DNA of 64,000 bases from Antedon mediterranea. Lineage: Eukaryota; Animalia; Echinodermata. The notes below the pieces were generated by a model, which ran no database searches, was not told the origin of the DNA, and saw only the letters and a list, made by a program, of their open reading frames with translations. Positions 21,801 to 59,676 of this stretch are shown here, one piece after another. The number at the start of each line of letters is the position of its first letter. Position 1 is the first letter of the stretch. The translations under genes were made by a program, and so were the position numbers. The stretch covers positions 35,036,437 through 35,100,436 of the forward strand of contig NC_092672.1 of assembly GCF_964355755.1 (NCBI RefSeq), read 5' to 3'.

Positions 21801-24388
21801 TAATTTTAAAAATTATTCTTTTATTTTATAGTCCAATAATTTATCGGATAAATTACTGTCAAAATGGAGTACCAAAAGTGTGCTGAACATTTTTTATCTG
21901 TGTGACTATATTTCCCCCAACCCACTCTATGCCTGACCCACCCTCCCAACACGAAATTAAACTCAAAACCTTTTTTACTTTACTTCCTCATATATTATTA
22001 CTTAGATTAATCTATTCACCCCAACCTACTGTAGAATCTTCTGATAGCAATAATAATGTTAAAATATTTATGAGGAAATCCTTTCCAAACAATGAAAATT
22101 GTATAAGGATCCAAAATGCGAGTTTTGTGAACAGATTTTAACAAACATGATTAAAGCTAATTTTCCACTAGGCGAATCCAACGTTTCGAAGAGAAATAAA
22201 TCGCCTACTCTCTTTCCACTACATGAGCGAATAGCTGCGACGTTCATGTTCCTCGCGTGGTTGCTGAGCATTTCGATTCGCATGAGTGCTCATGAAAGTG
22301 TCATAGCTCATTTCCTGAGCTCTGATTGGTTCCGCAATGTTTCGCTTCGAAAAAGTAGAAACAATTCGAACTAGTAAATTTCGCTGAAGCGAAAAATCAA
22401 AGGAACTAGAATTCGACGAAGAAGGCAGTATGACAGACAGAAACGCGAATACGCATGTGCATAGCATGACGCTTTCGATTCGCGCGAACAAATTCACCTA
22501 GTGGAAAATAGGCTTTAGCACCAGTCAGTGTTAAGCACAACAATGTTTACATTCATAACATTCAATCTGTGAATTGCGACTGTAGAATAACTATCTCTAC
22601 TCACAATATCATACAGTACTTTACAGTATGTGGAATGGTGATAGAATATTCACATGAGTGTGGGTTGTTGTTGTGATCTAATATTTTGGTAATTGTCTTT
22701 AGCTTAGGTGGATGTACAGCAGTAGTGCTACTGTAGTAGTAGTCACAATTTAATCCAGGGGGTATGAGAAATAATCTAAGGCATGGAAAATAAGAAATAA
22801 CAATCAGGTTGTACCACAAAAAAGCTGGGTTAATCTTGTATAACATTTTTACCTAAAAATTGTTTTTTTTTACGTTCTAGTTAGAATTGCCAAATAGCTC
22901 TATAAATATAGTCCGAGTCTTCAAGAGTTAAGCGCAATTAAATACACCAGAAAAAGAAATGAATTAGAATTTATCTGCTCAAATTAATATTGATTATTAT
23001 TGTTGAATTTTTTACTTTGTACGCTGTTTGCAGAATTATTCAGTCGTTGGCTGTCTTCTCTTTGTACTATTTATGTGTTTCTATGAATACCTACATATTA
23101 TCGCAAATAGCTTGATTACGCGAAGAACGTCATTGCACAATGCATGATAGGAAGGGTTTGTATGCGTAAATACAAACAACAAATCATATCCATACGCATC
23201 ATGACGCTTGCTCCCAATCGCTTCCCACTGATTCCCACCATGCATCATGCACACTATTTATTTGCCATAATCCTTATTGTATACAGTTATGTTGGCAAAA
23301 GATGATCGGGACCACGGAAGATCGGGCCCAAGACGATCGGGCCCAGAAAACGTAGTCCCGATCGTCTTCAGCGTTGGGCCCGATCGTCCAGTGTTTTCAG
23401 AACTACGTTGGGCCCGATCGTCTTACAAGTTGGTCCCGATCGTCTTAGCATTGGGCCCGATAGTCTTTTGTGTTATATAAAATAATTTCAATAATTTCCA
23501 CATTTCATCATTTTTCATTCCTAGTGCTAATGTCAACGTGCTTTTCTTGTGTAAATTAAGATTTTAATTGAAAATATTATATCTGATTTTATCCTAATTT
23601 TCCCCTAATTAACACTACTGGTTTTAAGAATTTCTTTACCAATACTCTCGATTTATGAATAAATGTGATTGATTTTGATTGTTATTATTGTGTTGTTTGT
23701 ATTCGCGTATTTATTTGTAAACATTTTCTGAGAATGTTTTGGGCCGATCATCTGGGCCCGATCGTCTCTGGTCTCGATCGTCTCACGATTTGGGCCCGAT
23801 CGTCTTGAAGTGAGCCCGATCGTCTGGGCCAGATCGCCTCTGGGCCTGATCGTCTTTCACAGTTGATGGGCCCGATCATGTCACGATTTGGGTCCGATCG
23901 TCTGGGCCCGATCGTCCGTGGTCCCGTGGTCGTCTAATAACCATGTTGGCCCTCTATTGTATATCAGCCTTTTATAATAAATAGCACATAGGCCTATCAT
24001 ATTATTATATAATACTTCATAATAGCAATTAATATTTCGTATCTTACCCATTGTAGGCAAGACTCAGACATTCAAACAACTTTGAAAATGAAGACTCTAT
24101 CTCGTTGGTAGAACAATTTTTATTCTCCCCAAACGAATAACTTGTTGATGGATCTTTATTAGCCGAAACAAAATCGAATCCAACTTTGTCTTTTTTCTTG
24201 CCTCGATGAGGGTCACTGACCATAAAATGCCCGGAGTGGATTTGCTCGTCGCAGCCAGGTTTTGGCCCTGAACTGCTTCTTGATCGCAATTTCATCCGTT
24301 CTTTTTCCTTATAGTTTTGATCTTCCTCTGACCCTTGCATAAGTTGCAGCTTGCCTTTGGCATTTAATACATCATCCCGAGCCATCAT
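6820..24388 (-). CDS. MLXIP: Mondo family bHLH-ZIP glucose-sensing transcription factor (MLXIP/MondoA and MLXIPL/ChREBP co-orthologue), 16 coding exons
   Basis: Exons in transcript order: 24388-24048, 18874-18768, 17278-17205, 16655-16524, 16036-15892, 14121-14017, 13257-13187, 12677-11534, 11191-11082, 10637-10568, 9972-9908, 9658-9629, 9367-9308, 8601-8414, 8048-7925, 7350-7221, 6935-6820 (17 segments listed including the 30-nt microexon 9658-9629); all phases are compatible. Motifs: IHSGHFMVS, SKLFECLSLAY, SPKWKWFRGLKL..KDKIRLNNAIWREWHMQ, LEGKYWKR, DTLFTSL..PFAFPNPKE, NADMIQPGLVQLQP, bHLH THISAEQKRRFNIK, C-terminal NWKFWIFS...WLDQHCSL. Confidence 0.95.
7351..7924 (-). other. U12-type (minor spliceosome) GT-AG intron in the Mondo gene
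   Basis: Minus-strand donor GTATCCTTT (7924-7916) matches the U12 5' consensus; branch site CCTTAAC (7370-7364) lies about 12 nt before the AG at 7352-7351. Confidence 0.9.
9434..9527 (-). mobile_element. Degenerate copy of the same retroelement family in a Mondo intron
   Basis: Minus strand reads GAAAGCTCTGCAAATTTTTCTGGTT...GATACCCACAGCATT...CAGTAATTTGCCTTTGAATT. Confidence 0.65.
17988..18709. mobile_element. Element with about 165-bp inverted arms around an AT-rich core
   Basis: 17988-18154 is the reverse complement of 18543-18709 with few mismatches; a degenerate arm occurs at about 45160-45275. Confidence 0.75.
19130..20056. mobile_element. Non-autonomous DNA transposon, 927 bp, PIF/Harbinger-like
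   Basis: About 38-bp TIR CGCCCGTATTCTTAAACCGGACTTTAGTCGTAGTTCGA at both ends; TTA at 19127-19129 and 20057-20059; no long ORF. Confidence 0.85.
20514..21122. mobile_element. Kolobok-like non-autonomous DNA transposon
   Basis: TTAA|AGACACCTTCCCTAC ... GTAGGGAAGGTGTCT|TTAA; TTAA duplication with purine-purine start. Confidence 0.8.
22155..22514. mobile_element. 360-bp MITE, family B, second copy
   Basis: Collinear with 6262-6621 over its full length, same TIRs. Confidence 0.8.
23294..23942. mobile_element. Unclassified DNA-transposon-like element with GGGCCCGATCGTCT subterminal repeats
   Basis: Many GGGCCCGATCGTC[TC] units at both ends, inverted terminal blocks, flanked by a direct repeat ATGTT(GGC) at 23289 and 23943. 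Confidence 0.65.
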
Positions 24389-24855
24389 TTGCACAATTAA
24401 GCTGATTTTCAATAGAAAAACAAATAGTTTAGCTATCCAAATCCAGTATCTAAATTCGCCATTTCAGCACCTACGAAGTGTTTTTCATCCACAGTCCACA
24501 CATACAACACACGAATTGCAAAAACATGAAAACAAGATGATCGACTGATGATGACGTCACGTTGAACAACAGGGGGCGACAAACAACTTAATGAAGAGAT
24601 CATAAAAAAGAGAATTTATTTTGGTGTTTTTTGTACAAGTATTCAAACTTCCCAAAAAAGGAATTTTATTTTTATTTTAATGATAAAAAGGGATCAAAAG
24701 GCTCTATTCGACTTTATTTTCTATATTTCCCCCTTTATTAAATCATACAATTAATCTGTTTTTTCGTCGCGTCGACGATCGGATAGCGCGCGCGTGTGGA
24801 AAAAAAATTGTACGGAAATTAATTATAGAGGGCAGTTTTTACAAACGAAACAAAG
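24389..24855. promoter_or_regulatory. Shared divergent promoter region of Mondo/MLXIP and MED19 with a full CRE palindrome
   Basis: Start codons at 24388 (-) and 24856 (+) are 467 bp apart; TGACGTCA at 24552-24559; CpG-rich patch at about 24765-24795. Confidence 0.6.
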
Positions 24856-27100
24856 ATGTTGGCCGATATGATGATGGATGATGTTGACGATGGAAGACAA
24901 ATGCAGTCTTCTTCTCTTATTTTTGATGACTTGCCGACAAAAAGCCCAGAATCTATAAATGCAATATCTCCTACATCCATGTCATCAGTCGATAATGATA
25001 GATTGACGGAGAATCCATTCTATCTTATGAAGAAATTACCAGGTAGTTTTCCCTTTTGAGCTAGGCCAGTCGTCATTGACAAGATAGTGTAACTGCTATT
25101 TGTGTTCGCGGTCTAAATTGATTTATTCCCTGTGTCATTTGAACTTCCCATACACACTTTTTGGTCTAGGCCTAATATATAGTCTTAAATAGAAATTACC
25201 GAAACTAATGTTTTTAACAGTACTAGCCTTTGATAATTAGTACTTTATCTAGTTTTAATGCTTTTTTTTTTATAGAGAAGGCTGAGGTTACTGGCGAGAC
25301 AAACCTTATCAACCACTACGCGCTTGACCGAACGTATCAGAAGTTTTCGAGTAAGAAAGTAAAAGAACAACTTAGCACTTTTCTACCATTGATACCTGGT
25401 AAGCTGAAGGTGTTGTAATGCATTTGATTATATATTCTTCTTTCTGATGACAACTACTGTTATGTGTTTGATTCTTTTCAGAATTATTTATATGAATATG
25501 ATTTAATACCCTACATATTTTTTCTTTATTGTGATTGTTGAGTTATATATTTTTAAGACTGTTGCATGATACATAACCATAACATGTATTTTGTATTGCA
25601 CTTGCAATATACTTGCACTGATGAAGAGCTAGTGTTGCCCGAAAGCTCTGCAAATTTGTCTGGTTGTTTTACTTTTATAAGGTTTATTGCAAATAGCGTG
25701 CGCGACACATGGTGGAAAGGATTTGGGAGCAAACGTCATGACACGCGTACATACAACAACAAATCTTATTTTATTTTGTATCTCCATTAAGATCCAGCCA
25801 CTGATACCCATGTCATTTTTTAGTAATTTGCCTTTGGATTTATATTTTGTTTATTTTAAGTATTTGAATGTTTTTTAGGAAATATTGATACGGTTGGTTC
25901 TCAAGACAACAGTAGCCTCCAACTGTTGGTTGACAAACCTCCAATTGGAGGCAAGGAAATTCTTCAACTAAGTGGTAGTGCATTAGCAAGTTTCAAGCTA
26001 CATCCAGGATCGGTATGACATGTTTCTATTACTTCAGTTTACTTTACTCAGTCTTACTAACATAAACGCTGTCTACACTGTCAAGCTAGTTTGACAAAAA
26101 AAATAGAGCTGATTAATTATGAACGATATTAATTCAAATATTCAACATTTGTACAAAAAATATAAATAATAAATAAATTGTGAAAATGGTCTGGTTCAAA
26201 CCACCTCTGTCTACTGTACACTATCAAACTTGTTTGACAAAAAAAGTGTGACATGCCCAAATAAGGTAGTGATATGCCCAAATATGGTAATGATATACCC
26301 ATATTGTAGTGATATGACATCATCATGTCCATATACATATAGGCACATCACATTTGTTGTCACATAATCTGTTGAAAATGAAATGAATTTGCTTTTGTTA
26401 TTAGATACCAGATCAATACAAGTTATTACATCACCAAGCTCCAAAAAAACACAAGCATAGAAGACACAAAAGAGAACATCAGCCCCTGGAAGCAGGACAG
26501 GGATTTACTCAAGGTAATGCACAACCCCCGGGAGAGGTTCATACGCATCAAACAGCGAGTACAAACTCGCCAATTACAGGATGGATAAACTATTTTATAA
26601 TTTATCATGCTTATAAACTAAGTATAATTTGAGGCTTAGGGAGTGGAGTTGAAAGTGTAATGAGTTACAACTCTGGCACTACGTCAGGATTGAACCCTAA
26701 ACCTTTGAAGACGCAGGATTTTGATAATCAAATATTTATGTTTTAACCATTTGAATCGTAGGTGGTGAGGCACAAAGTGATGAACCAAAGAAAAAGAAAG
26801 TGAAGAAACACGAAGATCCAGACAGAAAGAAAAAGAAGAAAGATAAAAAGAAAAAAAAGGTAAGAACAATGTTAGGTAAATCATCTTTCTTACAAAAATT
26901 AAAATTATGCATACATTTCAGACATGACACAAGTGGGAAATTGCATTTTTATTTTTTAATTATTATTTTAAATTATGTATACACAGTTCAAACATGACGC
27001 AAGTAAAATTGCATTTTTATTTTTTTAGAATAAACACAGTCCAGACCACACTGGTGGTGTAGCACCTCCACATGAAGCTGTAGGACCTGGACGGCCATGA
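24856..27100 (+). CDS. MED19: Mediator of RNA polymerase II transcription subunit 19, 6 exons
   Basis: Exons 24856-25042, 25276-25398, 25879-26012, 26405-26513, 26762-26859, 27029-27100 join in frame: PFYLMKKLP-EKAEVTGETNLINHYAL...KKVKEQLSTFLPLIPG-NID...DNSSLQLLVDKPPIGGKE...FKLHPGS-IPDQYKL, then a Lys-rich tail and HSPDH. Confidence 0.95.
25613..25653 (+). ncRNA. Minimal type I hammerhead ribozyme motif
   Basis: TTGCA-CTGATGA-A-GAGC-TAGTGTT-GCCC-GAAA-GC-TC^TGCAA: stem I TTGCA/TGCAA, core CUGAUGA and GAAA, stem II with one A-C mismatch, palindromic AGCU stem III, predicted cleavage after 25648. Confidence 0.72.
25613..25842 (+). mobile_element. Same retroelement family, short copy with complete hammerhead motif in MED19 intron 2
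   Basis: Hammerhead at 25613-25653, about 100 bp of unrelated sequence, one partial 48-bp unit (25778-25815) and the shared 3' end AGTAATTTGCCTTTGGATT. Confidence 0.75.
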
Positions 27101-28334: not shown

Positions 28335-28912
28335 ATCCTACACACAATTATTAACACAAAGCAATTTGTGTGTAATTCAGGATCCCTACACACAATTATT
28401 AATATAAAGCAATTTGTGTGTAATTCAGGATCCCTACACACAATTATTTATATAAAGCAATTTGTGTGTAATTCAGGATCCCTACACACAATTATTAATA
28501 TAAAGCAATTTGTGTTTAATTCAGGATCCCTACACACAATTATTAATATAAAGCAATTTGTGTGTAATTCAGGATCCCTACACACAATTATTAATATAAA
28601 GCAATTTGTGTGTAATTCAGGATCCCTACACACAATTATTAATATAAAGCAATTTGTGTGTAATTCAGGATCCCTACACACAATTATTAATATAAAGCAA
28701 TTTGTGTGTAATTCAGGATCCCTACACACAATTATTAATATAAAGCAATTTGTGTGTAATTCAGGATCCCTACACACAATTATTAATATAAAGCAATTTG
28801 TGTGTAATTCAGGATCCCTACACACAATTATTAATATAAAGCAATTTGTGTGTAATTCAGGATCCCTACACACAATTATTAATATAAAGCAATTTGTGTG
28901 TAATTCAGGATC
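28335..28912. repeat. Tandem array, 48-bp unit, about 12 copies
   Basis: Unit GGATCCCTACACACAATTATTAATATAAAGCAATTTGTGTGTAATTCA, almost invariant. Confidence 0.95.
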
Positions 28913-29351: not shown

Positions 29352-32300
29352 TTATGTAACCGAAACTTTATCATAAGGCATAAAGCCAGAGTTTCCTAGC
29401 ATCCGAACGGAAACTCTACCGCTAGGACGAACGCAGACCCATGTGATACTGCCGTGGTTTAAACTAAATCGTAACCAAGCTTCTGGAGGGAGTTGTAGAG
29501 CTCTGAAATGAAGAAAAAAAAATTGGTTAAACAGTTTTAAAAATAAGGTAAAATAATGTGTCCAGACTCTAAACTGCACATCACATGACAAAGGCGACAA
29601 ACACAAATAGTGTGAGCAATGCATGATGGGATGGAATTGGGAGCAATAGCGCCACCACCAGTCTATATAAATTTTTAATTATACTGGTGGCAGTATTGCT
29701 CCAAATTCCTTCCCATCATGCATCGCTCATGCTATTTGTGTTTGTGTTTGTCGCCAAACAATGTACTATATCTACCTGCATACAAAGTAACGTATAACAT
29801 TCGCATGGCATACTAAAAGCTCTACACTATCATTCATCTGTTCAGGACTTGCTCGATGAAAATACTTGCAAAATGCAGCCTCAATCCGAGCACCATCTTG
29901 GAAGAACTGCTGAAAAATAAAAGACAACATTTCCAAAAAACAAAGGTTCTGGTTATCAGACGCTTTGAGCATCAGGCCCAGACAATCGTTGCCATAAAAA
30001 AAAAACTTTAATCGCTAAACAATCAATCTCCTAAATAATCAAATTAATCACAAAATAAACTAAACTTAATAATCTCTTCCAATCAGCAAAATCACCTGTA
30101 AATAATCTAGAATCAAAGAAGAATATGTTCTTGTCAAGAGGGGCCAGAAGCATTAAATGAGAATTAAATAAAATCCAGGCAGACTTTAAAAACACAGATC
30201 AACAAATCCTTGAACATTTATCATTTTTAAATCAAATATGTCATTATTAAATGAAGTTAAAAGGAGTGAAAACCAACCGATGCTTCAGGTCTCCAGTGTC
30301 CTGCAGGGGGTTCAGGGGGAATTGGCGCCCCTTCTCGTAGAAAGTCACATGATTTACGAGGCAAATCAGGAAAATGCTTAGCAATTATATCAGCTGTTTC
30401 GATTGCTCTGGTCATTGTGGAATTGTGAATAAGGCTAATGTCCAGTTTCATGTCTTTCAAACGAAGACCCGTCAGATGTGCTTGTTCACGACCTGAAAGT
30501 AATCAAAAGTTCTCTAAATTTAAAAAAAGTAAAAATTAAATAAATAAAAATTGATGTATATATGTACTTACACTATAAAGTACTGTACATATATACATCA
30601 ATTTATATATAAACCCAAAGGCAAAATATTGAAAAAATGACAATGCTGTGGGTATCAGTGGCTGGATCTCAATGGAGATACAAAATGACAATGCTGTGGG
30701 TATCAGTGGCTGGATCTCAATGGAGATACAAAATGACAATGCTGTGGGTATCAGTGGCTGGATCTCAATGGAGATACCAAATGACAATGCTGTGGGTATC
30801 AGTGGCTGGATCTCAATGGAGATACAAAATGACAATGCTGTGGGTATCAGTGGCTGGATCTCAATGGAGATACAAAATGACAATGCTGTGGGTATCAGTG
30901 GCTGGATCTCAATGGAGATACAAAATGACAATGCTGTGGGTATCAGTGGCTGGATCTCAATGGAGATACAAAATGACAATGCTGTGGGTATCAGTGGCTG
31001 GATCTCAATGGAGATACAAAATGACAATGCTGTGGGTATCAGTGGCTGGATCTCAATGGAGATACAAAATGACAAAGCTGTGGGTATCAGTGGCTGGATC
31101 TCAATGGAGATACAAAATGACAATGCTGTGGGTATCAGTGGCTGGATCTCAATGGAGATACAAAATGACAATGCTGTGGGTATCAGTGGCTGGATCTCAA
31201 TGGAGATACAAAATGACAATGCTGTGGGTATCAGTGGCTGGATCTCAATGGAGATACAAAAATGACAATGCTGTGGGTATCAGTGGCTGGATCTCAATGG
31301 AGATACAAAAATGACAATGCTGTGGGTATCAGTGGCTGGATCTCAATGGAGATACAAAATGACAATGCTGTGGGTATCAGTGGCTGGATCTCAATGGAGA
31401 TACAAAATGACAATGCTGTGGGTATCAGTGGCTGGATCTCAATGGAGATACAAAAATGACAATGCTGTGGGTATCAGTGGCTGGATCTCAATGGAGATAC
31501 AAAATGACAATGCTGTGGGTATCAGTGGCTGGATCTCAATGGAGATACAAAATGACAATGCTGTGGGTATCAGTGGCTGGATCTCAATGGAGATACAAAA
31601 TGACAATGCTGTGGGTATCAGTGGCTGGATCTCAATGGAGATACAAAATGACAATGCTGTGGGTATCAGTGGCTGGATCTCAATGGAGATACAAAATGAC
31701 AATGCTGTGGGTATCAGTGGCTGGATCTCAATGGAGATACAAAATGACAATGCTGTGGGTATCAGTGGCTGGATCTCAATGGAGATACAAAATGACAATG
31801 CTGTGGGTATCAGTGGCTGGATCTCAATGGAGATACAAAGAAAAAAGCGAAAAGCTAAATCTAAACGATAAATTAAAACAGCCAGAAAAGTTAGCAATTT
31901 ATCAATTTATATATATACACTATAAATAAAGTAGCTAAGCTAATTTTTTATTTTCTTAAAAATAAAAAATGTTAATATTACTAAAAGATACCTAGAAGAG
32001 TCAACGTCCTATCTTTGTCATCTTCGCGACCTATATTGTATTGTCCATGACGAATTAGGATCAAATGGCGTGTGGCTGTTGGCTTCGCTTCTGCTAGCTT
32101 CTGATTATATATTTCATTGTCGGTTTCTTTCTTTGGTGGTTTTACTGAACTTTTTGGATCCCTTCTAAAAAATAAAACAAACAAAAGAGAACATTATTAA
32201 ATAAATTATTTAAATAATATAGGCCTAGGCCTATTTATTTTATATAAATTCTAATTAGCTATAAATTATTTATTATTAATATTCATAATATAGGTAGTGA

Positions 32301-33313: not shown

Positions 33314-35170
33314 ATGGAGACTGAGGAAATATTCCAATTTCTATCTCCATCTGCGAGAATTGATGTGAAGGCATTTGCTTTGGATTACGTCCTTGGTTTA
33401 ACCAGCACAACAGAGGGAAAGGCGCTATTGTCATCTGATAAACGATATATCGAATCAATATTCAGTTTAACAAAGGACTCCACATCATCGATTGTCAAAG
33501 ATTCCTACATAGCGCTCATAGGCTTATCAGCAGATGATGCGTTTGCAAATACGATGATTACGGACTATTGTATCGTTCCTTCGCTTCTGGAGTATATCGT
33601 TAATGAAGAAAGTGATCATGTTGATACAGTCTGCATGTTACTTGCAAATTTAAGTCGCAATTCATTTTGCTGTCGGAAATTAATTGAGCTTATAGACTCG
33701 GAAGAGTGCTCTGTTAAACTATCGAAAATTGTTGAAGTTTTCTGTCAGAAAAAATTTAACAAGAAGGAGAATAATTTAGACCATCTTGGGCTGTTTTTGT
33801 CGAACATTACTCAGCTGAGAGAGGGACGAGTGTTTGTGTTGGATAGGACACAGTGCGTAGTTCAACGTCTGTTACCGTATACTGAGTATGACGCATCAGA
33901 AATGAGAAAAGGTGGTGTAATTGGAGCCTTGCGGAATTGTTGTTTTGAAACTGGTGCGTAGTATTGTTGTAGGACATTGGTCAGATCAAGAAAATTTAAC
34001 AAGCTGAGCTCCGGAGGGTTTATGTGTGACTGCGACACAATCAGTTCCACACCCCTTAACAGAAACTGCACGCCATGGATAATATGTACATAGTACAGTA
34101 CTGTTGGTATTTGTCGCAGCCAGACATAAGATCAAAGGACTGTTACGAGTTCCTATTTTGGCAAGGCGAGCTCAGTGTCCAGTTGTTAGATTGCATTGGT
34201 CAGATGTATGAATGACTTGGGTCAAATCTGAATCAGAGAGATGACCATGATAGCAGTCACAATGCCCAAGAATCTTTGTACCTATGTAGATGATAATTAA
34301 CTTTTAAAATATGGTTTCATTATTTGTAGATAATTTATTTTTGTTTACAGATGACCATGAGTGGCTGTTGAGTGATAAAGTCGAAATCCTTCCTCATCTC
34401 CTCCTGCCATTGGCTGGACCAGAAGAGCTGACCGAGGAAGACATGGAGGGTATGCCAGATGATCTTCAGTACCTCGGCGACGATAAAAAAAGAGAACCCA
34501 ATCCAAATATCAGAAAGATGTTAATAGAATCAATATGCCAGGTATAATGTAATTTGTAGATTGATTTTTTTCCCAACTTTTATTACCAAAGAAAAAGAGT
34601 GTTTTGGCATAATGGTATCATACTAGCATATGAGAGTGCCACATTGCTTATATCCATAAGCTCTGTCTACACTATCAAACTAGTTTGACAAAAAAAGTAT
34701 GATGTGCCCAAGCCCAAATATGTTAGTGATATGCCCAAATATGTTAGTGATATGACATCATCATGTCCTTATATGGCCACATCACATAAAATTTGATAGT
34801 GTGGACAGGGCTTCATTTTTAGGATTTGAACACAAAGATGTTGGTCCTGTGCCCGATAAAAAACAATTTGGTATAAAAATACAGTATTTTAATAATTGTT
34901 AAAAACATTTTTTTTCCACAGCTATGTTCTACAAAAGAAGGAAGAAAGATTGTGAAAGACAAAAGAACATATGTAATAATAAGAGAGCTGCATAAAACAG
35001 AGAATGACAAGGAGGTGTGTGTTGCAATTGAACATTTGATACAGTTATTGATTGGAGATGAGCCAGAGAAAGGCATGGAAAACCTAAAGACGGTTGAAAT
35101 ACCGCCAGAAGTTGATGACAAGCTTAATAAAATTATGCTGCAACATGACAAATTAGAACATAACAAATAA
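33314..35170 (+). CDS. HGH1: Protein HGH1 homolog (FAM203, eEF2 chaperone), 3 exons
   Basis: Exons 33314-33953, 34351-34541, 34922-35170 in frame. Motifs CMLLANLSR, SNITQLREGR, RKGGVIGALRNCCFE, ILPHLLLPLAGPEEL..EDMEGMPDDLQYL..DKKRE, YVIIRELHK, LIQLLIGDEPE. Confidence 0.95.
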
Positions 35171-38509: not shown

Positions 38510-38866
38510 AAACCATTGATTGGTTCGAAAACATTGATTAGTTCAAAACTATTGATTGGTTTGAAACCACTGACTGGTTCGAAACCACTGACTGGTTCGA
38601 AACCATTGATTAGTTCGAAACCATTGATTGGTCTGAAACCATTAATTAGTTTGAAACCATTGATTGGTCTGAAACCATTGATTAGTTCGAAACCATTGAT
38701 TGGTCTGAAACCATTGATTAGTCAAAAACCATTGATTGGTCTGAAACCATTGATTAGTCAAAAACCATTGATTGGTCTGAAACCATTGATTAGTCAAAAA
38801 CCATTGATTGGTTTGAAACCATTGATATAGTTTGAAAACTGGTGATTAGTTCGAAACCATTGATTT
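38510..38866. repeat. Tandem array, 18-bp unit, about 19 copies
   Basis: AAACCATTGATT[GA]GT[CT][TCA][GA] units, often alternating as a 36-bp dimer. Confidence 0.9.
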
Positions 38867-38971: not shown

Positions 38972-41900
38972 CTATATTTCATGTTTTTTGTAGTGCTCCA
39001 TGAAAATATCTTCCCGGCTTCCTCTGTCAAAATATGCGCGGCGGTACGTTGACGAATCATCCTGGAATTGATATCCGTAAGTCGCCTCAGAGATCGGCGA
39101 TTTGCAGATGAGAAATAAACGCTACAACAAGTAAAATATTATTAGTTATAATTAAACAGGTTATAATGTAGATTTTGGAAGTTAGACGTTACTGTTACAT
39201 TATTCATTATACAAAATTAAAAATGTACCTGCTAGTTCATAATTTAGAATTTGTTAATGTTAACTACTAACAAAATTAAAATCAACGTTTGAAATATTCC
39301 AAGTAAAGCATAAATATAAATTAAGCTTAATAGTTCTAAGACAGTATTTGAAATTCGGCTAGAAGAAAAATAATTGAAAAATTCGAAAAAAAAAAATCCA
39401 CAAATGTAATTCTTACTTCCATAAATGAACCCTCTGCAGTTGCAAACGCATAGACAATACCAATTGGTATCCAAATCATTGAAAGTAAAGCTATAAACCA
39501 GCCTAGGAACTCGGCCCAGTCAGGATAGATATAGTCATCGTAGGTCACTACTTCATACTGTATAAAGCTGAACACAAAGATAGCCTAGAGAGCCAGAAAA
39601 TAACAATAAGATTATCAGTCAATTCAATTTAAACTTTTTAAGGTTTATAAACCAAACTCATATAGCATTTAATATACAGTAGAATATACATATATATATT
39701 TAAACTGATGAAGGGCTAGTGCACTGATGAAGGGCTAGTGCACTGATGAAGGGCTAGTGCACTGATGAAGAGCTAGTGTTGCCCGAAAGCTCTGCTAACT
39801 TTTCTGGCTGTTTACTTTATCGTTTTGATTTAGCTTTTCACTTTTTATTTTTGTATCTCCATTGAGATCCAGCCACTGATACCCACAACATTGTCATTTT
39901 TTCAGTGCTTATTTTATTTTGTATCACTATTGAGATCCAGCCACTGATACCCACAGCATTGTCATTTTTTCAGTGCTTATTTTTTTTTGTATGTCCATTG
40001 AGATCCAGCCACTGATACCCACAACATTGTCATTTTGTATCTCCATTGAGATCCAGCCACTGATACCCACAACATTGTCATTTTGTATCTCCATTGAGAT
40101 CCAGCCACTGATACCCACAACATTGTCATTTTGTATCTCCATTGAGATCCAGCCACTGATACCCACAACATTGTCATTTTGTATCTCCATTGAGATCCAG
40201 CCACTGATACCCACAACATTGTCATTTTGTATCTCCATTGAGATCCAGCCACTGATACCCACAGCATTGTCATTTTGTATCTCCATTAAGATCCAGCCAC
40301 TGATACCCACAGCATTGTCATTTTGTATCTCCATTGAGATCCAGCCACTGATACCCACAACATTGTCATTTTGTATCTCCATTGAGATCCAGCCACTGAT
40401 ACCCACAGCATTGTCATTTTGTATCACCATTGAGATCCAGCCACTGATACCCACAGCATTGTCATTTTGTATCACCATTGAGATCCAGCCACTGATACCC
40501 ACAGCATTGTCATTTTGTATCTCCATTGAGATCCAGCCACTGATACCCACAGCATTGTCATTTTGTATCACCATTGAGATCCAGCCACTGATACCCACAG
40601 CATTGTCATTTTGTATCACCATTGAGATCCAGCCACTGATACCCACAGCATTGTCATTTTGTATCACCATTGAGATCCAGCCACTGATACCCACAGCATT
40701 GTCATTTTGTATCTCCATTGAGATCCAGCCACTGATACCCACAGCATTGTCATTTTGTATCTCCATTGAGATCCAGCCACTGATACCCACAGCATTGTCA
40801 TTTTGTATCACCATTGAGATCCAGCCACTGATACCCACAGCATTGTCATTTTGTATCACCATTGAGATCCAGCCACTGATACCCACAGCATTGTCATTTT
40901 GTATCACCATTGAGATCCAGCCACTGATACCCACAGCATTGTCATTTTGTATCTCCATTGAGATCCAGCCACTGATACCCACAGCATTGTCATTTTGTAT
41001 CTCCATTGAGATCCAGCCACTGATACCCATAGCATTGTCATTTTGTATCTCCATTGAGATCCAGCCTCTGATACCCACAACATTGTCATTTTGTATCTCC
41101 ATTGAGATCCAGCCACTGATACCCACAGCATTGTCATTTTGTATCTCCATTGAGATCCAGCCACTGATACCCACAGCATTGTCATTTTGTATCTCCATTG
41201 AGATCCAGCCACTGATACCCACAGCATTGTCATTTTTTTCAGTAATTTGCCTTTGGATTTATATATATTTAAACTTATATTTGTTTCATGTGAAAGTGTT
41301 CCTTTAATAAGGGGTGTCAAAAAGGATCCCAAAACCAAAACATGACAAATTCAAAGAGATTATCTCAATTTAGGCAAGCCACTCCCCCAAGGCCTCTTTG
41401 TTAGACTTCCAAGTAGAGTATTAAAGAGGATAACCACCAAGTACATACGGTCAACATGCTTTTTCCTTTCAAATCCCTCTTATTTGGAAGTTGTTACTAT
41501 TTCTGTTCGCAATTAACCAAATCTACTTTCCTTTAAGTCGACTTAAAAACCTTTTTTCAGAATTTATATTGACCTTGCTCTATTCTCACACAGCACCTTT
41601 GATACATTTTTTAATTGATGCTATTTCTGTTTTTATTAATTTATTATTAAACAAATGTAAATAATAAAATAAACTCCTGTCTACATTATCAAACTTTAAG
41701 TGACAAAAAAATGTTGATGTCATATCACTGCCATATTTGGCCATATCACTACCATATTTGTGCACATCACACTTTTTTTGTCAAACTACTTTGATAGTGT
41801 AGACAGAGCTTAACACTTACAAATATGAGAATAGGAGAAATGACAAGCCAGCAGGATACAAAGTAGATGTTTGGAGTAGAAGTGGTCATTTCCTCAACAT

Positions 41901-44900
41901 TCCTTCTTAGTCTTGTAGCACCTACAAAAGAAAGAGAAACTGAAATGCTAACTCTAGGGACTTTTAACCAGTCCAATTGGCCAATCCAATTGACCAGTCC
42001 TATTGGCCAATCCAATTGAGTCATCTCTACATACAGTATAAAACTTTGTCTACCCTATCAAACTTTATGTGACAAAATATGATGTGCCCAAATATGGACA
42101 TGTTGATGTCATATCACTACTATATTTAATCATGCCACTACCATATATGGGCACATCACACTATTTTTTGTCAAACTAGTTTGATAGTGTAGACAGAGCT
42201 TAACACAAAAACTGGTAGAGAAGAAGTCGATCTTATAAAAATCAATAAAATATTACACTGAAATAAAATATTTACCATAGAGCCAGCAGACAGCAATGAC
42301 TTCAGCTATAGCAATGAAGAAGATAGAAACAACAGCTACATACCAGTCAATGATTTGAAAGTAGTACATGCCACCCTGAAATAATTAACATTTACAGTAT
42401 AGTGAATTAACATTGCAATTGTAGCTTGGTGGTCAACATATTTTCTTAAGATTGGTTCACAGTAGGAAGTAAGCACAATGCAAGCGAGTTTGCCATTAAC
42501 AAGCCTACAGTTCAGATAATCCATTGCTTGTGATTCGTTTGCGTTGTGTTTGCGTTGCGTCCTAGTGGGAACCACGTTTTACAACCCTTATTAAGTGGTA
42601 TTGGAATGTTCTGTTTTTAGTATAAAGATTTCAATTCAATTTAGATTCAATGCCCATATGATGAAACTTGATAAAACTTTATGTGACAACAAAATGTGAT
42701 GTGCCCATATATGGACATAATGATATCACTACCATATTTGGGCATATCACTACCGTATTTGGGTACATCACACTCTATTTGTCAAACTAGTTTGATAGTG
42801 TAGACAGAGTGTGGGTTCTCTGTATGAGCATAATATGTAGGAAGTAAGCAACATACCATGTTGACTGTTTATATGGCGTATATAAGACCTATTTTAGAAT
42901 ATGCTGCCCCTGTTTGGCATGGCGCTATCACTAAGGACATGTCCAAGTCTATTGAAAAGGTACAAAAGAGAGCATTGCGTATCATGCTAGGTAACAACTA
43001 TTTGTGCTATGATCATGCATTGTCTGTTACTGGTTTACCGACTCTTGTAGAGAGAAGAAACAAACTTGTGTTGTCTTTCGGGGAAGGCTTACTTCCCCCT
43101 CTTCATAAGCCAGCTCGGTCTCTCAGAGTCAACCGCTTTCTAGAAGTACCTCATTGTAAAACCAGCAGACTTAGGTCGTCTCCAGTTCCCACCATGGTGG
43201 ATATAATTAATAGGCACCACTAGCTCTTTTTTAGATATGTAATAAGTGAAGGTTTTAAGGTTTTTTATTCATGTATGTTTTTAATTGTATGGTACGATAT
43301 CTAATTTTATTAAGATGTTTCTATTTTTATAGCAATTTTAACTAATTTTTAGTCATTTGTAATACATTTCATTTCAGTCCTTGACTGTCGTTTTGTAATA
43401 TATTTTTATATACCGAATAAATAAATAAATAAAAAAATGTACAAACAACACCAGAGTGAAATTATTGGCCAGTACACAATTGTGTGTTATTGAATATGAA
43501 AGAGTCTACAAACCTGAAAAGTGCATGGAATACCACAGGCAAAGGTGAACAGACAAATGTACAAGACGAGGACCTCCTTACGGTTAAAATACAAAGGTTT
43601 CAGTTTGGGAAACCCGTCCATAAGAGTTGTTATGACAACTTCAACCATTGCAAACTAGAAAAGAAAGTTGAAATACAATATAATAACCTCTCCTTTTGGC
43701 CACACCCACTAATGGGAGACATTCCTACTGGAAAAACTATGACAAGAATCTGTATACAATATGAATTCTAATCACTTTTTTGCTGTGGTTGATTTACCCT
43801 TTGTTTTTGTATGACTATTTCATGTTTAAATGTTTTTTTGTATAAATTGTATTTACTTAATGTATTGATTTTCTATGTTAATGTTTTGGTGTTTTTGTGT
43901 AGTTTTTATACAGTTTTTATGTAAATGCAATACTTTCACCTTCTGCTGCTTTTTGTATCTATATGTTTTTTTAAACCGAAAAAAAAAAATAAATATAGGT
44001 TTCTTAAAAAGTAGTTTCACATACAGTACATACAAAAAATGGTAATTATTACCTGGCTGTCAATGCCTAAACAGATAAGCATTATGAAGAACAAGACGGA
44101 CCATAACTGAGGCACAGGCATGGCAGAAAATGCTGCTGGATACACAGCAAACACAAGTCCTGGGCCTAGACGAAATATAAACAAAAGGAAACCATTTATT
44201 TATATTTTGAACACCTTATAAGGTCAATTTTGTAAATATGTATCACATTTTTTGTATAATCTTTATGATAAGCATTTTTGGCTTTGTGAAGATTTCATCA
44301 GTCAGGAAACTCAGGAATGCAAACTTATTCCCATGATAAGATTTAGGTACAACCCAACAGGTATACAGGTATATATAATAATAATCCAAAATATGTGTGT
44401 CAATAGGGTCTGTATGGTACTTTTATTTAATTCATTTCATTTATTTTTCATAATATACAAAGTAAAACAAGATCAAAACTTTAAGATTAAAATGAAATAG
44501 TATAACTTGGAAGAATGTCTTTTTAGGACAAAATGTCACTTTAAAGGTCACCAGTGAAACAAACAAAAGGCATTTGAATGGCTTTTAATAACAAATAAAA
44601 AGTACTTACCACTTGCAACAACGTTATCAACATCCTCGTTTTGGATAAACGCTAGATGACCTATCACCGAGAAGATTGCGCATGAGGCAAAGAGACTTGT
44701 AAAAGCATTGATGCCCGATATCAGCATTGTATCTCTGTAAAAACAAACACAATTAATCATTACTACGAAACATTTGTATGAACCATGGTGGACTTAGTTC
44801 AAACAAAAAATGACAAACTAAGCTTTTCAATATAGCTAATGGTTTACTGGGAAATAATGAGATAAAGCTATGGTTATGAACAAGAAACAAGATAAAAAAT

Positions 44901-47900: not shown

Positions 47901-50900
47901 CCTATTATTCGGTTAGTTTACACATTTTATAAATAAAAAAAAAACATGTTTTTAAGAACAAGGAAATTGCTAAACAACAGGATCAAAACAAAACATGTCT
48001 GTCAATCAACAGAGTAGAGATTATGACATACCTTGTCGTCTGGCAAGAAATTTGAAGGGTTGAAATTTAATTATGGATTACACTGTAAAAAAACTATTAC
48101 GTAGAAGCACAGTTTAGTTGAAAAAAATATTATTATAATGTAATTAAATAAAACAAAATAACATGCATTAAACTAATTAATTATTTGTTCTTCTTTGAAC
48201 CAAATTAAAATAAAAGATAATTATGCTGTGAATAATCACTTTCTTGGTAAAGAAGAATTTGTTGAAAACATGAAATGAAATTAAACATTTATTTTAATTA
48301 CATTGTAATTGATCTTCTGCAAAAAAATTTATTAGATTGTGAAGAATGAATGAAACAACAACAAAAATATACTTATAATACATTTTTAAAAATCACATAA
48401 AAATAACACACATATTGATATATTTTTGGAAATATTTTCTCACAAAAATTGTGTAAATAAAAAAGAATCACCTGACAAGCGTGTTACTATGAAACTCATT
48501 GTAGCTAGAGAGGGCGATCATCGAGCCGAATGCGATACCAATTGAATTAAAGTTTTGAGCAGCAGCAGCTACCCAAACCTATATTTGGAAAAAAAAAATG
48601 TTACTGCATGCAAATTTATTTTGGGAATGGGCAAAGGTCATAATTGAGCATATTTTAACAAGGAAGCGGAAAAAAACATAATGCATTAACAAGAGGAAGT
48701 ATTTAATCCTTAAAAAAAAAATTAAATCTAAAAATAAGTACTCGCAATTAATACTGTAATTGATACTGTATTACAAAAGTGGTACAATATACTAACCTCT
48801 GCCTCCATTAACAGATCCCAATCTGGCTGAATAAAAAATCTAAGTCCCTCTCCTGCGCCCTCTAGTGACGCGCCCACTCCTACGAGAATCGCTAAAACCA
48901 TGTACGGGAATGTAGCAGTTACGTAAACAACCTAAAATATATACATAATAATAATAAACAATAACATTAATAATAATAAACAATAACATTAATAATAATA
49001 ATAAACAATAACATTAATAATAATAATAAACAATAACATTAATAATAATAATAAACAATAATAATCACATCAACAACAACAATAATAATAACAATAACAA
49101 TAATAATAATGTATATACACACTATCAAAAACAGACTAGTAATGTTTATTTTCTTTTTTTGTGTGTGTGTGGCCTTGTCCCACTTTTATTTGCATTGCCT
49201 ATTTTACAATACATATTCATTCAGCCGCATTCAAATACTTCCTGGTGCTGGCAAGAAATCAAGGGTCAGTTTATTTTAAGCAAAAGTACCATATTGGTTA
49301 TTCACAGCTATAGCCTATAGCTATAACTTATAGGCTACAGTATGACCTATAGCTATATAAAGTTATAGCTATAGCCTATAGCTATAACTTATAGGCTACA
49401 GTATGACCTATAGCTATATAAAGTTATAGCTATAGCCTATAGCTATAACTTATAGGCTACAGTATGACCTATAGCTATATAAAGTTATAGCTATAGCCTA
49501 TAGCTATAACTTATAGGCTACAGTATGACCTATAGCTATATAAAGTTATAGCTATAGCCTATAGCTATAACTTATAGGCTACAGTATGACCTATAGCTAT
49601 ATAAAGTTATAGCTATAGCCTATAGCTATAACTTATAGGCTACAGTATGACCTATAGCTATATAAAGTTATAGCTATAGCCTATAGCTATAACAAAAAGC
49701 ATTGAGGCAAAACTTTTAATATTCACAGTGTAATGCAATATAAAAAAAAAAATATGTTACTGTAACATATATTTTGTTTAACTTGCAAATTAAAGACAAA
49801 TTAAGATACACTACCAGACAATTTGACACTTATGAGAAATAACATAGTCATGTCAAACTGCTTACACAGCACAAATTTATATTTTGACATTTAACATTTT
49901 GTGAATATATCAAGGATTTACTTTTACTTTGTAAATGTATTCAAAGGAAAACCATTTTACCTTGCCAGAAGACTTAACCCCTTTGTGTAAGCATAAATAA
50001 ACCAAAATCCAAGCTAACACCAAGAAACCAAATATCTCCCACCGCATTTCTCCAAAATCATCAATGCCACCTGTGATATTGAGCACTCGACGACTTGATA
50101 GAAAGAAAGGGAAAACATATAATGAGGGAGGATGCTTTTTTTTTTTTTTAAACCATATTTAATGGGGGTGATCCATCCAGCTATTGCTGATTATTAGGGA
50201 CCCTCAGAGCCCTCAAACATATACACAAGATGCTCTACATAAACAAAGTCTTATTACAAGTCTTTGGGAGTGGAGTAATTTGGCCCTTAGAAAAAATCCT
50301 GACATGTGACGGGACTTGAACCCAGGACCCTTGGAGTGGTAGACAAGCATCATAACCACCAAGCCACAACTCCACTCCAAAATAGCCCCTGTATAAGGGG
50401 GATGCTTTATGTATTGCTTGATGCGTTTTTATTCTTTATTCTTTATATAATAATAGGTCCAGATGATGACAAATTGAAGTTGAAAAGAATTCGATTAAAG
50501 CTATGTCTACACTATCAAACTAGTTTAACAAAAAAAATTTGATGTGCCCAAATATGGTAGTGATAGGCCTAAATATGGTAGTGATATGACATTATCATGT
50601 CCATGTATCTTCTTCTTACTTGAATCTTCGGGCTCTTGATTAAGGCAAATGCCTTTTAAACGCCCTCCATTTCTTCTGTATTTATCTAGAATTGGTAGCA
50701 AAATTTATCTCCCATTGCTCTGTCTTTGTATGTATGTATGGACACATCGCATTTTTTTTTGTCACATTAAGCTTGATAGTGTAGATAGAACTTTAGGATT
50801 AAACTGTAATGAATAGCACAACACACATCAGAAAGGTTAATTCATTTGATATGCTAACTGAAAGAAACCGAGAAAAACATTGCGCTGTTAATGTCCAGAA

Positions 50901-53900: not shown

Positions 53901-56350
53901 TTTGGTATATGGATGTACTATCCGAATAAAGGAAATGCTGCCAATGAAAAACCCCTATCCACTGATTGTATCTTTCAACCTCTGACCATGAGTAAACTTT
54001 GACCATTTTATCCACGATCACAGTGAATGTGAAAGCACTTAAGTATATTACTTACTGATGTTTACCTAAGGTGTATGTGTATTGTTATGTCCATATACTG
54101 ATTACAAATGTAAGGTGAATCGATAATATTAATATAATTGTGGCTTCATATTCCTAATTTTTACAGCCCTATTGATTCAAGTTGAGTGCTTACCACATCA
54201 TATTTTAAATATTTTTAATTACCGTGACAGTATTAGGCCTACTCATAACCTCAGAACAGAAACTGAATTCAAAATTCCCTTCACAAGACTAACTTGCAGT
54301 CAACAGTTTATACACATATCTGGACCAAAATTGTGGAAAGAATTCACTTGTAATGGTGGTAATAAACCGGTTATTTTAAAGAAACAAAATAAATGTATAA
54401 AAAAACAGGTCAAAAAATACTTTTTATCACTATATGCTGATTAACAACACCTTTCTTTATGGGAAATGACTGTTTTATCTAAGTTCTATTTACTTATATT
54501 GTTCTTATGTAAAAGGGTCCTACAAAAAACGAAGCTACAGCTTTTTTATGCAGGATCCTTGTTATCAGTTGTATTGCAATTATGATGTAATTGATGACTA
54601 AATAAATGTGGAATAAATAAAATGAAAATAAATAAAGTCATCAGAGGAGTTGTGTTGAAGAAAGTTTGAACATTATGAACAATAAGAATGATTGTATACT
54701 TTTAATTTCATGCCTGAATAAAGGGATACAAACAACGTGTGCACCCATATTGTTCACTATAATATTCCTATGGTGCACCAAACAAGAATTGCCGTAAATA
54801 AATAGTATTACATTTCCATTTTCTATGTTTGCTTATTTAAAGATGTATTATCCCCTGAAAAAATAATTCTTAACATTTTTGTTGAATATGCCATTTTAAT
54901 GTAACATAATAGCTATCCACTTTGACCAAAACTTGGATCGGAAAAAAATGTATTTACCTGAAACATTTGTAATTTAAAGCAAAAAATTGTCAAATAGGTT
55001 GCCAGCCAATGTGTTTTTGGTTGAATTTAACCATTTATTTTGTCATTTTATAAGTGAAAACATTATTTTTTTTCTACGTAAGTGATTAACTTTATTAAAA
55101 CTACAAAATAACATATTCAAAGTCTGATTTAATTAATCTTCATTTTTCATGTTTTTGGGGGACAATACATCTTTAATATGATTAAATATGCTAAACCATT
55201 TAATCAGCAGACGAAACAGAAATTTATCATCCAATTAAGACAATATCCATTAATTACAATCCTTCCTAGTATAAAAATCCCACTCACTATATGTTTCCCA
55301 AATTTTATAAACCCTGGGAGGGACTATAATATACTCAAAACTCATTATACAATACGATAACTCATTTTAGTGTTTACACAGACCTCCTTCAGTAGATTAT
55401 AGCCTAGTCTTTACATTCCGATCCTCCTTATAAAATCTTGTATATATCGCTCGCCTCATCTGAAAAATGTTCACAACATCCCCACCGCCTTAGCTCACGC
55501 GTATTTTATATTAATAATTATATTTATAGCATCTTTGCCTCGTCTGTTTTTAACCCATCGTTACGGCCTTGATATACTGTACATAAAAAAGCTTCATGTA
55601 ATGCAAGAGGGTCCTGCAAGAGGTAACTGACAATAGGCCCTAGAGTAGTAGCAAAGAACTGGAATTTAAGTTCTTTGGTAGTAGCATGTAGGTATAAAAA
55701 AGATACCTCCATGGTAGTAGTAGTTTATAGTAGAATCAATACCTCCATGGTAGAATAGTGTACTAACTAACTATACTCTAGTAGTAATAAATAGTACATT
55801 TATTGCACTCAGTGTTTTCAAAATGTTTGCTTTATTGCATCTTTATCCCTAGTAGTAGTACTAGGCCTACCCCATAGTCTCTCTGAAAATAAATTTGGGG
55901 AAAAAGCTTATTATATGCTTATAAATGCATATCAAAGCCGATAAATTTAAGTGTGTCGTCTCAGGGCCGAGTCGTCTCAGGGCCGAATCGTCTCAGAGCC
56001 GAATCGTCTCAGGGCCGAATCGTCCCGTTACCCGTTGGACACACACACAACACACGCGGTCGATGAAAACAATAAAATACAAATTTAATCTTACCTCCAC
56101 CACTTTTATAACAAAGGTAAGGAAACCTCCAAACATTGCCTAGACCAACAGCATAACCAACACATGACAGGACAAACTGTGCCTTCCTACCCCATGTTTC
56201 TCTTGAAACCTTTACAACACCTTTTCCATCCATTTCCAATGCTTTCTCTTCAGCAGCCGATGATGTATGAACAGCGGCGGCGGTGGTCGTTCCTCCTTGT
56301 GTCACGCTTGGCGGGTTGCTTTCTTGAATAAGAACACCCATAATATTCAT
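38972..56350 (-). CDS. ine: SLC6 sodium/chloride-dependent transporter, inebriated (ine) subfamily, 13 exons
   Basis: Exons 56350-56095, 52681-52547, 51380-51161, 50093-49961, 48931-48797, 48578-48472, 44734-44610, 44165-44053, 43654-43514, 42375-42276, 41921-41821, 39584-39417, 39121-38972 are all phase-compatible. SLC6 signature [36 protein letters not shown]; TM6 [17 protein letters not shown] resembles Drosophila inebriated rather than the usual TQIFFSYG/LG. SLC6 call is near certain, subfamily less so. Confidence 0.88.
39704..41259 (+). mobile_element. Hammerhead-bearing, minisatellite-carrying non-autonomous retroelement (most complete copy)
   Basis: Hammerhead motif 39759-39795, linker, about 28 units of the 48-bp repeat (39850-41235), 3' end CAGTAATTTGCCTTTGGATT; 16-bp direct repeat TATATATATTTAAACT at 39691-39706 and 41260-41275. 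Confidence 0.85.
39759..39795 (+). ncRNA. Minimal type I hammerhead ribozyme motif, preceded by three 19-bp partial duplications
   Basis: GCA-CTGATGA-A-GAGC-TAGTGTT-GCCC-GAAA-GC-TC^TGC; predicted cleavage after 39792; upstream units ACTGATGAAGGGCTAGTGC x3 (39704-39760) carry GGGC, the perfect partner of GCCC. Confidence 0.7.
42812..43437 (+). mobile_element. 5'-truncated LINE fragment (CR1/L2 group)
   Basis: ORF 42858-43223 [17 protein letters not shown]...[10 protein letters not shown] is the post-RT region of CR1/L2-group ORF2, followed by a 3' UTR and an (AATA)n tail; it truncates the end of a MITE. Confidence 0.85.
48946..49110. repeat. AAT/AAC compound microsatellite
   Basis: Repeated AATAATAATAAACAATAACATT and (AAC)n(AAT)n. 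Confidence 0.85.
49307..49693. repeat. Tandem array, 60-bp palindromic unit, about 6.5 identical copies
   Basis: Successive 60-nt lines are identical; each unit contains GTTATAGCTATAG-C-CTATAGCTATAAC. Confidence 0.95.
50166..50366 (-). mobile_element. tRNA-derived SINE, second family
   Basis: Minus strand GTGGCTTGGTGG...GGTTCAAGTCC head; the body is shared with 7415-7560 (+) and partly with 51645-51700. Confidence 0.7.
52922..53122 (+). mobile_element. Second, more degenerate copy of the Deu/Nin-like SINE
   Basis: Collinear with 35455-35670. Confidence 0.75.
54150..54636 (+). mobile_element. Degraded LINE 3' fragment (L2/Crack-like)
   Basis: HNLR...[21 protein letters not shown]...KK..KKY resembles the L2/Crack ORF2 C-terminus; AATAAA-rich tail at 54600-54636. 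Confidence 0.6.
54841..55172. mobile_element. Kolobok-like MITE family (five copies)
   Basis: TTAA|AGATGTATT[GA]TCCCC ... GGGGACAATACATCT|TTAA; related copies at about 1562-1789, 10757-11064, 16064-16380 and 27562-27734. Confidence 0.8.
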
Positions 56351-58939: not shown

Positions 58940-59676
58940 TGATGACCGACATGGTTACGGCTGACAGCCATGGTTAGGGATGACCGAAATGGTTAGGGCT
59001 GACCGACATGGTTAGGGCTGACTGACATAGTTAGGGCTGACCGACGTGGTAAGGGCTGACCGAAATGGTTATGGCTGAAAGCCATGGTTAGGGATGACCG
59101 ACATGGTTAGGGATGACCGAAATGGTTAGGGCTAACTGACATGGTTAGGGCTGACCGACGTGGTAAGGGCTGACATGGTTAGGGATGACTGACATGGTTA
59201 GGGCTGACCGAAATGGTTAGGGCTGACTGACATGGTTAGGGCTGACCGACATGGTTAGGGATGACCGACATGGTTAGGGATGACCGAAATGGTTAGGGCT
59301 GACTGACATGGTTAGGGATGACCGACATGGTTAGCGATGACCGACATGGTTAGGGATGACCGAAATGGTTATGGCTGACAGCCATGGTTAGGGATGACCG
59401 ACATGGTTAGGGATGACCGAAATGGTTATGGCTGACAGCCATGGTTAGGGATGACCGACATGGTTAGGGATGACCGACATGGTTAGGGATGACCGAAATG
59501 GTTAGGGCTGACCGACATGGTTAGGGCTGACCGACGTGGTAAGGGCTGACCGACATGGTTAGGGCTGACTGACATGGTTAGGGATGACCGACATGGTTAC
59601 GACTGACCGCCATGGTTAGGGCTGACATGGTTAGGGATGACAGACATGGTTACGGCTGACTGACATGGTTAGGGTT
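58940..59676. repeat. Tandem array, 19-bp unit containing TTAGGG, about 38 copies
   Basis: Consensus GACCGA[CA]ATGGTTAGGG[CA]T. Confidence 0.93.

Follow-up and report, generated by a model that had tools for sequence, protein, structure and literature searches.

A putative Penelope-derived repeat with a minimal hammerhead motif and an internal minisatellite in Antedon mediterranea

Penelope-like elements (PLEs) carry minimal hammerhead motifs with an extra base between positions 9 and 10.1, a G10.1-C11.1 pair, a palindromic helix III, and a short helix I; these ribozymes cut weakly, as dimers, and in genomes they mostly stand alone, as what are taken to be truncated PLEs (PMC4209133). In PAc, a Poseidon element of Anolis carolinensis and the one Penelope element tested in vitro, the main substrate is uncut RNA and cleavage occurs only with the protein; reverse transcription starts at fixed internal sites 111–118 nt into the open reading frame (ORF), the ribozyme cutting at 26, genomic ends match these start sites, and targets are AT-rich (PMC11167929). 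(TA)n targets and non-autonomous derivatives have been described for PLEs (PMC8557442), and sequences of the pseudo-long terminal repeat (pLTR) alone can be mobilised in trans, with 8–10-bp duplications (PMC3846280). Here we analyse a repeat family found at five related loci (E1 to E5) in 64,000 nt of the crinoid Antedon mediterranea (assembly GCF_964355755.1, contig NC_092672.1, positions 35,036,437 to 35,100,436 of the forward strand). This whole 64-kb stretch is called the window, and positions are counted from its first letter.

With modest confidence, we lean towards reading the family as a high-copy, protein-free repeat, ~185 nt long plus a variable array, that comes from the pLTR end of a PLE and is copied in trans by a Penelope reverse transcriptase (RT)/GIY-YIG protein via target-primed reverse transcription, its array being carried in the RNA and then lengthened in DNA. 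The layout fits the pLTR end of a PLE; the family would consist of Penelope-type insertions and bears the PLE minimal hammerhead, and the copies seen are not autonomous PLEs.

Layout, ends, and target sites

On its own strand, a full element consists of a ~20-nt leader, a hammerhead motif, a 60-nt U-rich linker, at least one unit of a tandem repeat, and a 3′ end of 25–27 nt. The five loci (Table 1) sum to 3611 bases, or 5.6% of the window. The hammerhead is whole in E3 and E5, decayed in E2, and absent from E1 and E4. An earlier note on this DNA, made from the letters alone, had given one architecture to all five loci, which is true of the 3′ end but not of the whole hammerhead, found in two of the five. 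It had also ended E2 at 9527 instead of 9565, and had taken the linker to be about 55 nt long, where the distance from the predicted cut site to the first unit is in fact 60 nt. The 48-bp unit that it described is the main type but not the only one, a period of 68 bp being found in E1 and in the two leading units of E5. Its range of unit numbers, from less than one to about 28, was accurate: there are 28 units in E5, 25 in E4, five in E1, one with a deletion in E3, and about half a unit in E2.

Table 1. Positions of the element copies, their parts, and their target duplications in the window
Feature	Position	Strand	Description
E1	5428-5836	-	5′-truncated, without hammerhead; five unit starts at 68-bp spacing
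E1 target duplication	5415-5427 and 5837-5849		13 bp
E2	9435-9565	-	Decayed: upstream leader, degenerate hammerhead, half unit, 3′ end
E3	~25611-25840	+	Whole hammerhead, interrupted linker, one deleted unit, 3′ end
E3 hammerhead	25613-25653	+	Stem I 5 bp; predicted cut after 25648
E3 linker interruption	~25677-25765		Piece of another repeat family
E4	30612-31896	-	Begins at predicted cut site; 25 nearly identical 48-bp units
E4 target duplication	30597-30611 and 31901-31915		15 bp; 4 extra bases at 5′ junction
E5	39704-41259	+	Three 19-bp repeats, whole hammerhead, linker, 28 units, 3′ end
E5 5′ target-site duplication	39691-39703	+	13 bp; 3 further bases common to element start
E5 19-bp tandem repeats (three)	39704-39760	+	5′ half of hammerhead, G form of stem II
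E5 minimal type I hammerhead	39759-39795	+	Stem I 3 bp, palindromic helix III, predicted cut after 39792
E5 hammerhead core	39762-39768		Followed by extra A at 39769
E5 hammerhead stem II	39770-39784		A-C mismatch; then GAAA
E5 U-rich linker	39793-39852	+	60 nt
E5 68-bp units (two)	39853-39988	+	
E5 array, 48-bp type (26 units)	39989-41232	+	Sequence variants in blocks
E5 fixed 3′ end	41233-41259	+	Putative start of reverse transcription
E5 3′ target-site duplication	41260-41272	+	TATA at its start

The 3′ end is common to all five loci, with 0–4 substitutions between pairs, and is followed by TAT in all of them and by TATA in four; the distance from the cut site to this end is 131 nt. The 5′ starts vary: E4 begins at the predicted cut site, E1 ~19 nt past it, and the other three (E2, E3, and E5) keep sequence from upstream of the cut. 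Further copies were sought in public contigs. Of 23 runs listed, five contain at least half of the sampled words (two organisms), runs with a small share being left out, and contigs from four runs, representing at most three samples, were aligned to E3, which differs from the family majority (4119, 1914, 3254, and 711 contigs per run). In run X1, the summed depth falls ~170-fold past position 25847, from 738,000 to 4,400, and hence the 3′ end is sharp family-wide.

Direct repeats anchored at the junctions are present at E1 (13 bp), E4 (15 bp plus 4 extra bases), and E5 (16 bp, if one counts the 3 bases shared with the start of the element). Among random pairs of TATA sites in the window, repeats of at least 13 bp have a probability of 0.0013. 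We did not count as a duplication the 8-bp match between E3 and its 3′ flank, which lies 16–18 bases off the junction. E1 lies at the margin of a different dispersed repeat (~40 matches in the window), and its duplicated word occurs once in each of eight aligned other copies of that host repeat, exactly in five and with one change in three. This supports the view that the E1 repeat is a true duplication made on insertion, though the sequence past its second copy does not continue the host repeat. A fixed 3′ end, variable 5′ ends, long duplications, and TA-rich targets fit target-primed reverse transcription. The earlier note is borne out on the fixed 3′ end, the variable 5′ ends, and the three copies with repeats of 13–16 bp; the TATA that it placed after the 3′ end is found in four of the five loci.

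The host repeat of E1 is abundant, with ~40 sites (e.g., 1296-1356, 3626-3685, and 58416-58473), and is followed by short 21-bp tandem units; we take it to resemble a non-autonomous element of the Helitron type. At E4, a fold-back with 27-nt arms (93%) at 30541-30611 adjoins and includes the 3′ target duplication. The family that interrupts the linker of E3 has relatives at 29604-29738 (a long fold-back) and 23199-23277, and has a raised contig depth of its own.

As had been noted from the letters, the element has no genuine ORF, the long ORFs across the arrays being translations of the repeat only, and the ATG in the hammerhead core meets a stop three codons on. ARAGORN found no tRNA gene (decayed heads can escape it), no poly(A) tail was found, and neither E2 nor E3 has terminal or subterminal inverted repeats. 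A tRNA-derived short interspersed element was rejected on the first two of these results, and a miniature inverted-repeat transposable element (MITE) or Helitron-type element on the third and on the lack of two fixed ends. Helitrons are not known to leave a long target duplication.

The hammerhead motif

A strict descriptor of the minimal hammerhead, a search that the earlier note had proposed, found two sites in the window, in E3 and E5, and none in 200 dinucleotide shuffles. An Rfam search (E <= 5) gave 22 weak matches, none of them to a hammerhead family and none on the motif of the element. The call therefore rests on the descriptor and not on a curated model. Both motifs have the CUGANGA, GAAA, and UH boxes with stems I and II, an extra nucleotide between 9 and 10.1, and the G10.1-C11.1 pair. 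The AGCU of helix III is self-complementary, with a computed duplex energy of -2.5 kcal/mol. In these features the motif fits the minimal type I hammerhead of PLEs (PMC4209133), palindromic stem III included, as the earlier note had it.

That note allowed either A or G in stem II. Both whole copies in the window have the A, which gives an A-C mismatch; within the window, the G form is confined to the three 19-bp partial repeats with which E5 begins. In the public contigs, the G that completes stem II makes up 97.6, 99.3, 97.4, and 98.8% of the depth at 25627 in the four runs, the A form being at 1–3%. The minority A, at 25627 and 39771, also completes a perfect inverted repeat with the letters that surround the cut site, which favours a non-catalytic hairpin.

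Exact-pattern scans of three collections (viral, metagenome, and prokaryote) found no member of the family. Viral contigs had no match to the hammerhead pattern and none to the unit. The one match to the hammerhead pattern in prokaryote genomes is GC-rich, lacks stem I, and was taken as chance. Metagenome contigs gave one hammerhead match (L001), in an unrelated element; it has the same core as the window copies and a different stem I and stem II loop, with both stems still paired. Stem I of this unrelated motif covaries; within the family the comparison is confined to two whole copies, and the table of contig variants misses a difference expected at 25787. In L001, the hammerhead (5993-6036) lies downstream of a 361-aa ORF (4635-5720), and there is an RT-like fragment at 1367-1654 (-). 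Neither ORF nor fragment has a Pfam match or a tblastn match in the window, and their likeness to Penelope is by eye only; a homology search for Penelope RTs with the RT-like fragment gave 31 candidates, none at E <= 0.001.

Directly past the predicted cut site (39793-39833 in the window), E4 and E5 show by eye a branch-point-like word followed by a U-rich tract. This tract ends in AG ~35 nt after the word, in the manner of the 3′ end of an intron; the word is not in E2 or E3. Penelope pLTRs are known to contain introns.

Insertion and the origin of the arrays

Under the reading favoured here, the partner endonuclease would nick TA-rich DNA, and reverse transcription would start at one fixed point of the RNA, ~130 nt past the hammerhead cut site, to give the sharp 3′ end. 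Synthesis would halt at variable points, leaving variable 5′ ends, and a nick of the second strand 13–15 bp away would produce the target duplications. The template would be mostly uncut RNA, because a minimal hammerhead that stands alone is predicted to cut only with the help of a second copy or of the protein; E4 may copy a cut RNA. The three copies that keep sequence from upstream of the cut would have come from uncut or re-joined RNA, so that processing by the ribozyme, which the earlier note had ascribed to the family, is doubtful for most copies. After insertion, arrays would grow and be homogenised by slippage or unequal exchange. The partner is likely a Penelope protein, as the hammerhead points to PLEs.

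Several observations weigh against this reading. No RT or GIY-YIG motif of a partner is found in the six frames of the window. Both whole hammerheads of the window are mismatch variants of stem II, and the best fold predicted for them is a non-catalytic one. There is no inverted 5′ copy in the flanks of E4 and E5 or in the whole of E2 and E3 (E1 was not covered), and the five copies show no clear tail of 30–40 bp; both are optional hallmarks of Penelope. The putative duplications of E2 (7 bp) and E3 (3 bp) are not significant, and those of Penelope elements in Adineta, at 8–10 bp, are shorter than the ones found here (PMC3846280). Finally, the ratios of contig depth are rough, as summed contig depth is not copy number and E3 is off the family majority.

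Relative to single-locus depth, the summed depth is ~5,700–22,000 for the hammerhead and 2,800–4,800 for the 3′ end (three runs), values that are not copy numbers and can be read only as thousands. Judged from these contigs, the family is high-copy, roughly in the thousands. Among the contigs listed, 55, 54, 59, and 17 (in the four runs) run upstream of the hammerhead. Most copies seem to begin shortly upstream of the hammerhead and not to continue into one common ORF, a few full-length masters being possible. These data bear on an explanation that we consider unlikely, in which the copies are 5′-truncated ends of an autonomous PLE with an expandable pLTR segment, made in cis from full-length RNA, and no separate non-autonomous family exists. 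Single minimal hammerheads are mostly thought to be just such truncated PLEs (PMC4209133), PLE insertions are strongly 5′-truncated (PMC8557442), and the letters nearest the motif in the contigs resemble the leader of E2, so that ~15–20 nt upstream of the hammerhead are common to both. However, the loose ends upstream of the hammerhead, of median lengths 55–248 letters, have an agreement of only 0.51–0.58 over 30 letters, as if they ran into unlike flanks. A stop soon follows the ATG of the hammerhead here, while in the anole element the ORF begins at the hammerhead. The place where one would expect that ORF to start is occupied by an array of variable length.

The unit of this array has a 44-nt core, and the link to the next core is either a T run, giving the 48-bp period, or a longer spacer, giving the 68-bp period. 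Because E1 and E5 have in common the 68-bp junction and two unit variants (B and C), the source copies were multi-unit already, and the element takes its arrays along. In E5, the variants stand in blocks (11 like neighbours, P = 0.009; P = 0.03 and 0.05 for each of the two single variants by itself), a pattern that DNA turnover is expected to leave. Four unrelated long arrays in the window (28337-28912, 48 bp; 38510-38865, 18 bp; 49306-49693, 61 bp; and 58943-59678, 19 bp) have no flanking direct repeat of at least 10 bases within 300 bases, except for one low-complexity 10-mer, and no convincing inverted repeats. This genome thus lengthens minisatellites without the element, and expansion at the DNA level is common here. 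In the earlier note, the element was a vehicle seeding a satellite; arrays do lie inside it and travel with it, but none in the window is free of the element's ends. The unit was also considered as a structured hairpin that binds a protein, and this found no support: the unit has no unusual fold (z = 0.17, or 0.15 when the 3′ end is included; z = -1.03 for linker plus unit).

Alternatively, the element would be mobilised by Penelope and its arrays written during insertion, the Penelope RT, in eukaryotes the nearest relative of telomerase, repeatedly re-annealing the end of the cDNA at the ATTTT that flanks the unit on either side and recopying the segment. We hold this to be rather improbable, and the evidence on it is divided. 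Periods of 19, 48, and 68 bp arise independently within a single short element, the first of them right at a 5′ junction, and the public contigs contain joints that go back (25817 to 25773/4, 25806 to 25765, and 25678 to 25615); microhomology at the junctions, however, equally fits DNA slippage. The 25 units of E4 are nearly uniform, with two substitutions and three changes in T runs, against differences from E5 at 7/85 positions of the linker and 3′ end; yet the blocks of E5 and the variants common to E1 call for a multi-unit template or later turnover, and long arrays unrelated to the element stand in the same window. PLE RTs group with TERT and DRT10, and the latter adds repeats via an A-B-A′ template, but it failed with a B segment of 20 nt (PMC12632851), and here B would be 43 nt.

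A further alternative is that the element is a non-LTR retrozyme: paired hammerheads would cut tandem copies, the monomer would be circularised, and the RT would start within the circle and copy through the rejoined site of cleavage. In favour of this, the 5′ start of E4 coincides with the predicted cut site, and helix III has the self-complementarity that a dimer requires. Two head-to-tail joints, in which 25845 at the 3′ end is linked to 25611 or 25621 at the start of the hammerhead, are among those listed in the contigs. These joints are nevertheless at single-locus depth (359 and 398, compared with ~250–300) and could be nested insertions into the TATA of an earlier copy. One copy in five would start at the cut site with an estimated chance of ~10–15%, and at its junction E4 has part of the target repeated. 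Two whole hammerheads are not found together at any locus of the window, and known retrozymes carry canonical ones (PMC7229834). The repeated 48/68-bp unit excludes the ribozyme, which places the family outside the definition of retrozymes, and we regard this route as distinctly improbable. It is hardly credible that the family represents a non-autonomous DNA element, of the Helitron type or a MITE, that is tandemly repeated inside and resembles a hammerhead only incidentally, even if Helitrons are the best-known carriers of short euchromatic tandem arrays (PMC12692304), as this conflicts with the long variable duplications, with one end fixed and the other variable, with the lack of inverted repeats in E2 and E3, and with the absence of the motif from 200 shuffles.

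Neighbourhood and described relatives

The window has a GC content of 33%. HGH1 is present in three exons (33314-35167, +); the exon at 33314-33952 matches a protein of Antedon mediterranea at 100% identity and one of Anneissia japonica at 81%, which marks the host as a feather star, most likely the former species. An exon of a sodium:neurotransmitter symporter was found at 56009-56350 (-), and exons that look by eye like Mondo/MLXIP at 11526-12677 and 24044-24463 (-). A remnant at 42834-43223 resembles by eye the C-terminal part of a long interspersed element reverse transcriptase and has no Pfam match.

The class of element is a known one, and its unusual part is the expandable internal cargo. 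If read as we favour, as a Penelope-derived repeat copied in trans, the family would preserve, in a crinoid and on a large scale, the traces of many Penelope-type insertions, with an internal minisatellite dispersed by a Penelope end rather than by a Helitron or an LTR element. A review already counts Penelope elements among the origins of satellite DNA and transposons among the vehicles by which arrays spread (PMC12692304). The thousands of copies with a sharp 3′ end offer a countable test of whether the Penelope hammerhead ever sets the inserted 5′ end, and likewise of whether arrays arise during or after retrotransposition. Should the RT write the arrays, telomerase-type repeat addition would be linked to the birth of satellite DNA, and dispersed minisatellites would be made by the thousands, with tens of units per insertion, through reverse transcription and not by DNA slippage.

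In the literature covered (few subscription journals, and neither Dfam nor Repbase), we found no account of this family, nor of a hammerhead-bearing Penelope end with an internal array made from part of the element. Among described systems, transposon-borne arrays (Helitrons, arrays in the 3′ UTR of LTR elements, and Penelope-derived satellites) are similar in that a mobile element disperses short arrays able to lengthen; in the passages of the review considered here, Helitrons and LTR elements are named as carriers of internal arrays, whereas Penelope is named as a source of satellites only (PMC12692304). The Chlamys non-autonomous elements, such as MRC1, are also non-autonomous PLE derivatives that resemble the 3′ end of autonomous ones, but they are green algal, mostly lack canonical hammerheads, and form tandems of the whole element (Craig et al. 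2021, PMC8557442). Animal non-LTR retrozymes share with the family a non-coding, hammerhead-bearing, low-GC sequence, long duplications, and a proposed dependence on Penelope (PMC7229834; bioRxiv 10.64898/2026.07.22.740005). They differ in having a hammerhead, mostly canonical, in every tandem unit, whereas here the motif is minimal and the unit excludes it.

Closer still are the PLEs themselves. As in PAc, the hammerhead is followed shortly downstream by a fixed insertion end, targets are AT-rich, and the uncut ribozyme is kept in copies; PAc is however autonomous, with an ORF from the hammerhead and two start sites that define the 30–40-bp tail (Frangieh et al. 2024, PMC11167929), while the element described here has no ORF and shows one end, 131 nt past the cut site. 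With the PLE minimal hammerheads at large it has in common the core boxes, the extra base, the G10.1-C11.1 pair, the 2-nt palindromic helix III, the short helix I, and a distribution as thousands of dispersed, mostly single motifs. The differences are a helix II of 4 bp instead of 7–8 bp, the lack of an attached ORF in the copies seen, and the amplification, here up to 28 times, of the segment downstream of the ribozyme.

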